Positions 19,713 through 23,414 of a stretch of 64,000 nucleotides of DNA are shown piece by piece. Both the position numbers and the translations under genes were made by a program. This DNA is from Shigella phage ESh28. The notes beneath the pieces are model-generated. The model was given only the letters and a program-made list of their open reading frames with translations. It had not been told where the DNA came from and did not search any database. The stretch lies in sequence record ON528738; one strand, given 5' to 3'. Numbering within the stretch: position 1 is the stretch's first letter; the number at the start of each line of letters is the position of its first letter.

Positions 19713-21224
19713 TTATAAATTAACTGTTTTCATTACGTAATTAAATTTTTCATCTGCGTAGCGCTGAATACGATCAATGCCGTGTTTTAAAAGATAGTTC
19801 AAATGAACGTATTTCTTTTTCGTATTAGCAGATTTTGGCTTGACGCCTGCGTCATCTATAAGATCCCAGACTGTTGCGATTGTTTTAGAACCATGTTTAC
19901 GTAATACGCGACCTATTGTTTGCAATACAATAATTTTAGATTTAACACCGTGTGCTAAAACAACGTGATGCAGATTTTTAACTGAAATACCAGTAGAAAA
20001 TACACCATAACTAGCTACTATAATTATTCCTTTACCGTTTTCAGCTAAGGTTTTCATTATATTGCGGGTTTCGGTATCAACTTCCCCTGATACGTAATAA
20101 ACTTTATCGTATTCATTTTTAATTAAATCGAAAATAGCTTTACCGTGCGATACGTGTTTAAACATGACAAAAGCGTTTTCATCTTTTTGCGCAAGCTTAA
20201 TAGCTAATTTAGCGATCCATTTATTTCTTTTACTAAGCCCAGTAATAATTTTTATTTCTTCTTGATAAGTTTTTCCCTTTAATTTGGTAGTGAACTCATC
20301 AGGATAACGAAGAAAAATACTATTAATTTTTAGCTCAGTTACTTGTCCATCTTCCATTAACTTAGAAGTCGTTACTGGCTTAAATATTTCACCAAACATT
20401 CCAACATACTGCATGATATTGGCTTTGCCATCACGTAATGAACCAGACAAACCGAATTTGAACATGCAGTTATTTAAACCTGATATGATAGATGAAATAC
20501 TTTTTCCTGTAGCAAGATGGCATTCATCATTCATCATCATTCCAAACTGTGAGAACCATTCTTTTGGTTGTTTTACTACAGTTTGCCATGTACCAACAAC
20601 AACTGGTGCATCATTTTTATATTTATCATCTTTTGATGCTCCGCCACCAATTTTCTTTATCATTGCATGACTGAATAAACGATAGTCAACGAAGTCATCA
20701 GCCATCTGAGTTGTCAGAGCAGTTGTTGGAACAATGATAAGAATTTTACCTTCATAATTTTCCAAATAATATCGCGCAAGCAAAGCTTGAATTAACGATT
20801 TACCAGCGGATGTTGGAAGATTAAGAATTCTACGACGATTAACTAATCCTTCGAACACTGCATCTTTTTGATACCAGTGTGGTTCAATTCTTTTATTTCC
20901 TGAATAGATTTCTAATTTAGAAAGCCATTCATCAAAATCTTTTCTTGATAATTCTTCTTTTTCGTTAATTTGTGGGTCAATCCAGGCTTTATAGCCAAAG
21001 TTATCACAGAACTTTTTAATTTGCCCGACTAAGCCGAATGGAAGAAGACGATTATAATCTAACAGACGGATTCGTCCATCCCAGTGGCCATATCTGTACT
21101 TCGGATTAAAACGATACCCATCAGCTTCAAAGCTAAAGAAATCACGGAGTTCATGAAATGTACTTTCTTCACAATCAATTCTCACGTGACTAAAATCATA
21201 AAAATGTACTTTAATGTCAGTCAT
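19713..21224 (-). CDS. uvsW: UvsW DNA/RNA helicase
   Basis: 503 aa; Walker A LPTSAGKS and DExH-like MMMNDECH motifs; T4 length. Confidence 0.9.
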   Translation of the reverse strand: MTDIKVHFYDFSHVRIDCEESTFHELRDFFSFEADGYRFNPKYRYGHWDGRIRLLDYNRLLPFGLVGQIKKFCDNFGYKAWIDPQINEKEELSRKDFDEWLSKLEIYSGNKRIEPHWYQKDAVFEGLVNRRRILNLPTSAGKSLIQALLARYYLENYEGKILIIVPTTALTTQMADDFVDYRLFSHAMIKKIGGGASKDDKYKNDAPVVVGTWQTVVKQPKEWFSQFGMMMNDECHLATGKSISSIISGLNNCMFKFGLSGSLRDGKANIMQYVGMFGEIFKPVTTSKLMEDGQVTELKINSIFLRYPDEFTTKLKGKTYQEEIKIITGLSKRNKWIAKLAIKLAQKDENAFVMFKHVSHGKAIFDLIKNEYDKVYYVSGEVDTETRNIMKTLAENGKGIIIVASYGVFSTGISVKNLHHVVLAHGVKSKIIVLQTIGRVLRKHGSKTIATVWDLIDDAGVKPKSANTKKKYVHLNYLLKHGIDRIQRYADEKFNYVMKTVNL

Positions 21225-21253
21225 GTCTAAATACCATGTAATAAATATATCTA

Positions 21254-21261
21254 TATTTATA
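21254..21261 (-). promoter_or_regulatory. late promoter TATAAATA for uvsW (minus strand)
   Basis: TATTTATA on plus strand, about 30 nt upstream of uvsW ATG. Confidence 0.55.
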
Positions 21262-21274
21262 CTGAGGAAATATT

Positions 21275-21955
21275 ATGATAGATAAAGATTATATTGCAGA
21301 GCTGAAGGCTCTTGATGATAACAAAGAAGCTAAAGCTAAATTAGCTGAATATGCTGAACAGTTTGGTATAAAGGTCAAAAAGAATAAATCTTTTGATAAT
21401 ATCGTTGCTGATATTGAAGAAGCTCTCCAGAAGCTCGCTAGTGAACCTATGCCAGAGACTGATGGGTTATCTATTAAAGACTTAATCAATGCTGCTGATG
21501 CCGCAGAGGGATTAAAATATGACGATGAAGAAGTCAATCCAGAAGCAGCACTTTTGATTGATTCTCCGGTTAAATCTGACATTAAAATTGAAGTAGTAGA
21601 AACGGATAAAATTCCTGAAAATACCTCAGTTTTGATTGAAGATACTCCTTTTGTTGAAGAAAAATTCGAACAAGCTGTAGCTGAGATTATTGAATCTGAA
21701 AAGCCGTCTGTATTTACTCTTCCGGAAAACTTTAGTCCGAATCTTCAGCTGATTGGAAAAAATCCAGGATTCTGCACTGTTCCTTGGTGGATTTATCAAT
21801 GGATTGCTGAAACTCCTGATTGGAAATCTCACCCAACTAGTTTTGAACATGCGTCAGCACACCAAACTTTATTTAGCTTAATTTATTACATTAACCGCGA
21901 CGGATCAGTTCTAATTCGTGAAACACGCAATTCTTCTTTCGTAACATTAAAATAA
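21275..21955 (+). CDS. inh: Inh, inhibitor of prohead protease (capsid-associated)
   Basis: 226 aa equals T4 Inh; position upstream of hoc. Confidence 0.7.
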   Translation: MIDKDYIAELKALDDNKEAKAKLAEYAEQFGIKVKKNKSFDNIVADIEEALQKLASEPMPETDGLSIKDLINAADAAEGLKYDDEEVNPEAALLIDSPVKSDIKIEVVETDKIPENTSVLIEDTPFVEEKFEQAVAEIIESEKPSVFTLPENFSPNLQLIGKNPGFCTVPWWIYQWIAETPDWKSHPTSFEHASAHQTLFSLIYYINRDGSVLIRETRNSSFVTLK

Positions 21956-21964
21956 GGATAACTT

Positions 21965-23383
21965 ATGACTTTTACAGTTGATATAACTCCTAAAACACCA
22001 ACGGGGGTTATTGATGAAACCAAGCAGTTTACTGCTGCACCCAGTGGTCAAACTGAAGGTGGAACTATTACCTATGCTTGGAGTGTAGATAATGTTCCAC
22101 AGGATGGAGCTGAAGCAACCTTTAATTATGTATTAAAAGGACCTGCTGGTCAAAAGACTATTAAAGTGGTTGCAACAAATACAGTTCCAGAAGCTGAAGC
22201 TGAAACAGCTGAAATTAGTACAACTATCACAGTTCAAAATAAGACACAGACAACTACCTTAGCTGTAACTCCTAATAGTCCTCCAGAAGGAGTAATCGGA
22301 ACAGCTGTTGAATTTACTGCTGCTTTAGCTTCGCAGCCATCGGGCGCAACTGCTACGTATCAATGGTACGTTGACGATTCTCCTGTGGGCGAAGCAACTT
22401 CTGCTACATTCAATTATACTCCTACTACAAGCGGAGTTAAAAAAATTAAGTGTGTAGCTCAAGTAACTGCTGATGATTATAATGCACTGAGCGTTACTTC
22501 TAATGAAGTATCATTGACGGTTAATAAAAAGACGCAGACAACTACATTGGCAGTAACTCCTGCTAGTCCTTCAGCTGGAGTAATTGGAACCCCAGTTCAA
22601 TTTACTGCTGCCTTAGCTTCTCAACCGTCTGGAGCGTCTGCTACGTATCAATGGTATGTAGATGACTCTCAAGTTAGTGGAGAAACTAACTCTACATTTA
22701 ACTATACTCCAACTACAAATGGAGTCAAAAGAATTAAATGCGTAGCCCAAGTAACTGCTGATGATTATAATGCAAAAGAAGTTACTTCCAATGAAGTATC
22801 ATTGACAGTTAATAAGAAGACAATGAATCCACAGGTTACATTGACTCCTCCTTCTATTAATGTTCAGCAAGATGCTTCGGCTACATTTACGGCTAATGTT
22901 ACGGATGCTCCAGAAGAAGCACAAATTACTTACTCGTGGAAGAAAGATTCTTCTCCTGTAGAAGGGTCAACTAACGTATATACTGTCGATACCTCATCTG
23001 TTGGAAGTCAAACTATTGAAGTTACTGCTGTCGTTGCAGCAACTGATTATGATAGCAAAACAGTTAAAACAACAGGTCAAGTTCAAGTGACTGATAAAGT
23101 TGCTCCTGAACCAGAAGGTGAATTACCTTATGTTCATCCTCTTCCACATCGTACTTCAGCTTACATCTGGTGCGGTTGGTGGGTTATGGATGAAATCCAA
23201 AAAATGACTGAAGAAGGTAAAGATTGGAAAACTGAAGATCCAGATAGTAAGTACTACTTGCATCGTTACACTCTTCAGAAGATGATGAAAGATTATCCAG
23301 AAGTTGATGTCCAAGAATCGCGTAATGGATACATCATTCACAAAACTGCTTTAGAAACTGGTATCATCTATACCTATCCATAA
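21965..23383 (+). CDS. hoc: Hoc, highly immunogenic outer capsid protein, with extra Ig-like domain
   Basis: N-terminus MTFTVDITPKTPTGVIDETKQF and C-terminus ...IIHKTALETGIIYTYP match recalled T4 Hoc; 472 aa versus 376 aa in T4. Confidence 0.85.
   Translation: MTFTVDITPKTPTGVIDETKQFTAAPSGQTEGGTITYAWSVDNVPQDGAEATFNYVLKGPAGQKTIKVVATNTVPEAEAETAEISTTITVQNKTQTTTLAVTPNSPPEGVIGTAVEFTAALASQPSGATATYQWYVDDSPVGEATSATFNYTPTTSGVKKIKCVAQVTADDYNALSVTSNEVSLTVNKKTQTTTLAVTPASPSAGVIGTPVQFTAALASQPSGASATYQWYVDDSQVSGETNSTFNYTPTTNGVKRIKCVAQVTADDYNAKEVTSNEVSLTVNKKTMNPQVTLTPPSINVQQDASATFTANVTDAPEEAQITYSWKKDSSPVEGSTNVYTVDTSSVGSQTIEVTAVVAATDYDSKTVKTTGQVQVTDKVAPEPEGELPYVHPLPHRTSAYIWCGWWVMDEIQKMTEEGKDWKTEDPDSKYYLHRYTLQKMMKDYPEVDVQESRNGYIIHKTALETGIIYTYP
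22241..22816 (+). repeat. in-frame tandem duplication, 2 x 288 bp (2 x 96 aa Ig-like domain) inside hoc
   Basis: units 22241-22528 and 22529-22816 encode KTQTTTLAVTP...SLTVNK twice with near-identical sequence. Confidence 0.85.
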
Positions 23384-23387
23384 TCGT

Positions 23388-23414
23388 AGGGGCTTCGGCC
23401 CCTTTCTTCATTTT
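23388..23414 (+). terminator. terminator AGGGGC-TTCG-GCCCCT + T-rich tail after hoc
   Basis: GC stem, UUCG loop, TTCTTCATTTT. Confidence 0.65.

Follow-up and report, generated by a model that had tools for sequence, protein, structure and literature searches.

The hoc gene of Shigella phage ESh28 encodes a five-domain protein in which the second Ig-like domain, D2, is present as two tandem units, here called A and B. The window, the whole 64,000-nucleotide stretch of record ON528738 that was analysed, is a Tequatrovirus (T4-like) segment with about 97% identity across 24 kb to vB_EcoM_OE5505 and PYps32T. The two units very probably go back to an old tandem duplication, or to an old stacking of allelic forms, in a module whose copy number varies by recombination, and the window carries a mosaic version of the gene. 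Neither the extra domain nor its origin from a repeat is new. The two-unit gene belongs, as an unremarkable case, to a common class of five-domain Hoc alleles and is already known, because it is annotated in GenBank: record AY101183 (hoc of phage RB30) marks five domains and carries the repeat_region note 'intragenic repeat led to appearance of additional immunoglobulin-like domain'. The record of phage moskry annotates repeat regions at hoc too. A search of the accessible literature found no paper describing RB30 Hoc, and the prior record is the AY101183 annotation. With the feature on record beforehand, the discovery is a minor one. What is added is a modest advance, namely a view of the population, with A and B as old unit types, one to three copies, chimeric contraction products and domain-scale mosaicism.

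The hoc open reading frame occupies 21965-23383 on the plus strand, with its stop codon at 23381-23383, and encodes 472 residues, compared with 1131 bp and 376 residues in T4. The assignment draws on the open reading frame list, nucleotide identity, alignment to T4 Hoc structures in the PDB, and synteny. At the nucleotide level the gene is 95% identical to hoc as annotated in Tequatrovirus phages (top whole-gene match 95.4%), and it lies between inh (21275-21955) and a 24.3 homologue, the same order as in T4. The longer order typical of the Hoc-family locus, uvsW / inh (hoc.1) / hoc / 24.3 / 24.2 / rnlB, is also seen in the window, whose open reading frames agree with T4 and other phages. An earlier reading of the letters alone had named the gene as hoc and counted one more Ig-like domain than in T4, and it was right on both points. 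Five bases past the stop codon, at 23388-23403 on the plus strand, is a terminator-like hairpin, GGGGC-UUCG-GCCCC, with a T-rich tail after it; the equivalent site is an annotated terminator in phages G10400 and G8.

Tandem Repeats Finder reported a sole array within hoc, at 22229-22822, with a period of 288 nt, 2.1 copies and 80% matches. A second repeat finder returned a matching 288-nt pair, also at 80%. Unit A (22241-22528) and unit B (22529-22816) follow one another in frame from codon 93 with zero indels between them, and each encodes 96 amino acids of the form KTQTTTLAVTP...VSLTVNK. They are identical at 232/288 nucleotides (80.6%) and 80/96 residues (83.3%), and the 56 nucleotide differences are distributed 10/10/36 over codon positions 1, 2 and 3. 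In 10,000 shuffles the identity reached at most 36%, against 80.6% in register for the real units. The longest perfect in-register runs measure 27, 19 and 17 nt. The sequence-only reading had the coordinates, the 288-bp period, the frame and the 96-residue unit length correct, but its description of the copies as near-identical does not survive these figures. The self-comparison it had named as a refuting test does not go against it, with A and B 83% identical in amino acids and either unit only about 40% identical to D1 or D3. These identities place the D2 duplication after D1, D2 and D3 had separated from one another.

Hoc forms a linear fibre built from Ig-like domains, approximately 180 A long in T4, with a C-terminal anchor at hexamer centres; its C-terminal domain is responsible for capsid binding, and homologues carry 1-10 Ig-like domains (Fokine et al. 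2023, PMC10385173). The window protein fits this architecture. It aligns over its full length to T4 Hoc chains in the PDB (e.g. 5vf3_Z, E 7.7e-219), and HMMER pairs window residues 189-472 with T4 Hoc 93-376, such that T4 D2 pairs with unit B. Pfam matches above the gathering score are PKD, PKD_4 and BiPBP_C, with weaker Ig_2/Ig_3/I-set matches; together they cover both units and D3. In an AlphaFold2 model with a mean pLDDT of 84.7, residues 1-378 score about 90 or higher and fold into four beta-sandwich domains. All are encoded on the plus strand: D1 (residues 1-92, 21965-22240, pLDDT about 85-93), unit A (residues 93-188), unit B (residues 189-284, with the best Pfam PKD stretch at 197-253) and D3 (residues 285-378, 22817-23098, with Ig_3/I-set matches at 289-356). 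The same seven-strand pattern recurs in A and B at an offset of 96 residues, and Foldseek matches are strings of Ig domains from adhesion molecules. The linker and C-terminal capsid-binding domain follow (residues 379-472, 23099-23380). This part is near-identical to T4 Hoc residues 283-376 and almost invariant across 30 homologues; its AlphaFold2 model, with pLDDT 41-65, was excluded from interpretation. Because of this near-identity the protein is predicted to bind gp23 hexamers, probably with one monomer at the centre of each. Across 164 units, mean entropy is 0.60 in loops and 0.25 in strands. Of the differences between A and B, 10/16 fall in loops, which is not a significant enrichment (Fisher p = 0.17).

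The divergence between the units is considerable. By the Nei-Gojobori method, A and B of the window differ with a dS of about 0.75, a dN of 0.11, a dN/dS of about 0.15 and a pS of 0.47, and purifying selection has maintained both. In all 11 two-copy alleles compared at the DNA level, A-B nucleotide identity is 76-81%, the window having the highest value. The A-B dS across alleles is 0.75-1.1, against a deepest flanking-domain dS of 0.43-0.54. Mean orthologous dS among alleles is 0.47 for A-A, 0.29 for B-B and 0.19-0.28 for D1, D3 and the C-terminal domain. Protein comparisons covered 30 two-copy proteins, i.e. the window and 29 representatives of clusters made at 90% identity, with units split by position (a split at the KTQTTTL motif misses variants). 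Among them A-B identity peaks at 85%, and A units are closer to A units of other phages (88%) than to their own B neighbour (80%). The D2 units are also the most diverse stretch of hoc, with dN 0.06-0.09 versus 0.007 in the C-terminal domain, the least diverse segment (dN/dS 0.03). Taken together, these values make the D2 duplication old when it is set against the diversification of the sequenced Tequatrovirus hoc alleles. Recombination is pervasive, and dS therefore converts poorly to event ages.

Each unit has its nearest relatives in other phages. In an NJ tree of 41 units, first units form one clade and second units another, and A and B of the window were sisters in 0/200 bootstraps. The tree is a DNA-level one drawn from 23 alleles. 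Strict monophyly of A, B or single-copy units received 0% bootstrap support each in this NJ tree, because chimeric and single-copy units interleave, and units were therefore typed by diagnostic sites. At sixteen nucleotide sites A and B units carry different fixed bases; the first unit of the window is A-type at 14/16 and the second B-type at 15/16. Unit B is 98.3% identical (283/288 nt) to unit B of RB30/RB27, and unit A shares 94.1% of its nucleotides with the single RB32 unit and 92.7% with unit A of PP01. The partner unit within the window ranks only 22nd and 26th of 39 relatives by identity. Orthologues of A and B are present in RB30, RB27, PP01 and many others, and the window gene fits the RB30-type class, a 1419-bp coding sequence in which two tandem, in-frame D2 units of 288 bp separate D1 from D3. 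By diagnostic sites and tree placement alike, the orthologue of the first unit is RB30 unit A and that of the second is RB30 unit B. Compared with the D2 domains of Klebsiella phages and of other T4-like Hoc proteins, A and B score alike, with 27-33 identical residues each, and these outgroups leave the ancestral copy number in Tequatrovirus, one or two, unpolarised.

The D2 module occurs across the genus in one copy (T4), two or three, and alleles of 283 residues that lack D3 exist as well. Hoc proteins of 568-570 residues (Escherichia phages UGKSEcP1/UGKSEcP2 and ENA metagenome contigs) have three tandem D2-type units with 73-79% mutual nucleotide identity. Three such alleles were compared at the DNA level (L039, L040 and L042, each 301-2007). 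Each array starts with an A-type unit, and the unit in the middle is B-type in UGKSEcP1 (14/16 sites) and B-leaning in the metagenomic alleles (11-12/16). The third unit, 77-79% identical to the other two, is mixed in UGKSEcP1 and ENA_P0002 (6-7 A-type and 6-7 B-type sites) and B-type in ENA_P0004. Single-copy alleles are heterogeneous: the unit is B-type at 16/16 sites in T4 and IMGVR_L004 and A-type at 16/16 in IMGVR_L006. The single unit of EO1 is A-type up to about unit nt 144-150 and B-type beyond. That of RB32 equals window unit A over nt 49-218, is A-type at all informative sites over nt 57-213 and is B-type over nt 219-261; the RB32 D1 has 0/276 mismatches to the window, and its D3 lies 1-2 nt from that of RB27/RB30. 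By its site pattern, the RB32 unit is what an unequal crossover between A and B in a two-copy allele should leave behind, with 288 bp deleted. Because the breakpoints of RB32 and EO1 differ, at least two independent contractions are implied.

The sequence-only reading had also called the repeat an unstable recombination substrate. The footprints in RB32 and EO1 uphold this in a weak, evolutionary sense only. Contraction in a lysate is expected to be rare, far below that of a fresh perfect duplication, because the longest perfect homology between the units is 27 nt. T4 recombination is reported (Singer et al. 1982) to become efficient at about 50 bp of homology.

The single T4 unit is itself composite. 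It is B-type for roughly its first three quarters and has an A-like 3' tail (unit nt 247-279; protein ...DYDALSV...). This order is opposite to that of a simple A x B contraction product, and the T4 unit may derive from a unit that spanned a B/A junction in an expanded array, or may reflect gene conversion. Other unusual forms were noted. EP01 (401-1252 in L038) and PNJ-9 have a 283-residue Hoc without D3, made up of D1, one D2 and the C-terminal domain and joined as ...SLTVN|DKVA...; the EP01 protein agrees with the published 'variant Hoc' of PhiPNJ-9. The metagenomic P0072 (567 residues, 53% overall identity) resembles Tequatrovirus Hoc in its D1, its single D2 unit and its C-terminal domain, but three strongly diverged Ig-like domains replace D3 and the extra units, which suggests import from a more distant Hoc.

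The window gene is, by its segment-by-segment matches, a domain-scale mosaic allele. Its D1 is identical to that of RB32 (276/276 nt), its D3 to that of ESh29 (282/282), and its unit B has 5/288 mismatches to that of RB30. The neighbouring domains of RB32, ESh29 and RB30 differ from the window by 8-12%; the D1 of RB30, for example, has 33/276 mismatches (88% identity).

A different starting point for the array is somewhat improbable, though it deserves weight. Here A and B would have diverged as single-copy alleles and been placed in tandem afterwards, by unequal crossover at the linker in a mixed infection; the A-B divergence would then be older than the tandem arrangement and would not date the tandem state. 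The pure single-copy A-type (IMGVR_L006) and B-type (T4, IMGVR_L004) alleles are what such a history would supply, and the window gene demonstrates exchange of whole domains between alleles. The excess of A-B dS (0.75-1.1) over the flanking maximum (0.43-0.54) is likewise expected for maintained allelic classes with homogenised flanks. Single units are, however, equally explicable as contraction products, demonstrably so in RB32 and EO1, and a linker crossover in a two-copy allele would also yield a 'pure' single unit. The A-A dS of 0.47 and B-B dS of 0.29 among two-copy alleles further indicate that the tandem state itself is old, and no outgroup polarises the copy-number states.

The sequence-only reading had proposed a recent, lineage-specific, in-frame tandem duplication that left near-identical, collapse-prone copies. 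The units are indeed adjacent, in frame and without indels, and at 83% amino acid identity they stand well apart from the approximately 40% of other Hoc domain pairs. Recency is nonetheless rejected as highly improbable. The copies are only 80.6% identical in nucleotides at a dS of 0.75. They are not mutual closest relatives, grouping instead with their counterparts in other phages. Orthologues of both are carried by RB30, RB27, PP01 and others, among them the old isolates RB30 and RB27, and about 36% of sampled records share the arrangement. Descent of the other two-unit genomes from the window phage in recent times is excluded by hoc divergence of 5-12%. An assembly or sequencing artefact that wrongly expanded the repeat has practically negligible probability: short-read data can mis-assemble tandem repeats, but these units differ at 56/288 positions, and thus reads place unambiguously, and the 1419-bp architecture recurs in many independently sequenced genomes, including the Sanger-era RB30 record.

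The preferred reading, an old array remodelled by recombination, can be set out as a series of steps. (i) A 288-bp D2 module would have been duplicated in tandem, or two allelic forms stacked, long ago. (ii) Units A and B would afterwards have been held under purifying selection. (iii) Homologous and unequal recombination between co-infecting phages probably adds, deletes and swaps whole domains, and it is for this reason that D2 copy number would be one, two or three across the genus. (iv) The homology for these exchanges would be supplied by the conserved linker (...TVNK|KTQTTT...) and by conserved beta-strand segments. (v) The outcome would be a Hoc fibre that exceeds that of T4 by about one Ig domain and has a second D2 surface that includes an SLT motif.

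The two-unit form is widespread. Matches to hoc were found in 656 phage records, and in a sample of 60 evenly spaced records the 1419-bp form accounted for 21-22/60, the 1131-bp form for 31/60 and an 852-bp form for 2/60. A second sample of records gave a similar length split. The two-unit 1419-bp form thus makes up about 36% of sampled Tequatrovirus records, and hosts of the phages that carry it include Escherichia, Shigella and Yersinia. The sequence-only reading had suggested a comparison of Hoc lengths among relatives, and the outcome goes against a feature confined to the window. Lengths of 468-472 residues are common, with 30 of the best 120 protein clusters in this class, 81 at 376-378 residues and nine at 567-570. 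Public records also disagree on the name of two-unit hoc genes, which appear as 'baseplate wedge subunit', 'capsid vertex protein', 'capsid whiskers protein', 'PKD domain protein' or 'endonuclease [Shigella sonnei]'; examples are MN648445 FP43, MT682709 SP1 and P0025. In UFV phages hoc is broken into several coding sequences.

Several known systems offer points of comparison. The closest is the RB30-type Hoc (AY101183; also RB27 and PP01), which has the same 1419 bp and 472 residues and two D2 units of A and B type in the same position. The window allele is a different mosaic, with a D1 only 88% identical to that of RB30 (and the same as that of RB32) and the D3 of ESh29. T4 Hoc (PDB 5vf3, 8t1x; PMC10385173) shares the locus, D1, D3, the C-terminal domain and the Ig-like fibre architecture, but it has a single D2-type unit and hence one Ig-like domain fewer. 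The Hoc proteins of UGKSEcP1/UGKSEcP2 resemble the window in their tandem D2 module and differ in carrying a third unit. The 283-residue Hoc of PhiPNJ-9/EP01 (PMC11853027) is also a whole-domain length variant, and the SLT motif of its D2 is found in both window units; its length reflects loss of D3, whereas that of the window reflects gain of D2. Klebsiella phage Marfa (MN044033) has reached a 471-472-residue Hoc, polymorphic among relatives, by an independent tandem Ig-like duplication. There a D3-type domain was duplicated, in a lineage only about 50% identical. In Marfa hoc (1501-2916 in L008; also L007), the D3-type copies share 74 and 54 identical residues of about 94, and one-copy (374-377 residues) and shorter Hoc forms exist among the Klebsiella relatives. 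This parallel copy-number polymorphism points the same way as that of D2 in Tequatrovirus.

The region upstream of hoc varies as well. The window has only 50 bp (21225-21274) between uvsW (19713-21224, minus strand) and inh, and no segE. T4 has the homing endonuclease gene segE at this site, approximately 700 bp from hoc. RB30 and RB52 are also without segE, and in them SegE targets the uvsW-inh intergenic region; when it homes into RB30, the flanks are co-converted (PMC2330249). The state of this junction was considered as a predictor of hoc copy number and rejected, there being no association in the 60-record sample. Contiguous uvsW-inh junctions accompanied 13 two-copy, 13 one-copy and one three-copy hoc, and interrupted junctions, scored as such whatever the insert, accompanied six two-copy and eight one-copy hoc.

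Hoc is a capsid fibre implicated in mucus adherence and a widely used display scaffold. In PhiPNJ-9, residues S183/L184/T185 of Hoc D2 contact fucosylated MUC2 (Fu et al., J Virol, PMC11853027). In PhiPNJ-6, MUC2 is bound by D1 (E29/G33) and not by D2 (PMC11150434). The window protein has the SLT motif in both units, at residues 183-185 (S183-T185, 22511-22519 on the plus strand) in A and 279-281 (S279-T281, 22799-22807, plus strand) in B, and its D1 has E31 and G33 (QTEGG). Because the motif occurs twice, a doubled valency of MUC2 contact is possible. The window fibre is probably longer than that of T4 by about one Ig domain, and an effect of the extra domain on mucus adhesion would be plausible. 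Its consequence for adhesion is uncertain because PhiPNJ-6 uses D1 rather than D2 for MUC2.

About a third of T4-like coliphages have a five-domain Hoc and some a six-domain one, built of old D2 paralogues that are each conserved separately, and this bears on the choice and comparison of therapeutic phages. The prevalence of the five-domain form also affects how adhesion experiments that use the four-domain T4 protein alone are to be read, and recognition of multi-unit Hoc guards against annotation errors. A broader interpretation, offered tentatively, is that Hoc D2 is a cassette system, in which a few ancient unit types (A, B and a third, found in three-unit alleles) are kept by selection. 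Homologous and unequal recombination in mixed infections would stack and delete them and exchange them together with the other domains, giving different combinations of fibre length and glycan-binding valency tuned to niche. If this is true, the variation would be like that of adhesin or antigen repertoires and would go beyond neutral length polymorphism.
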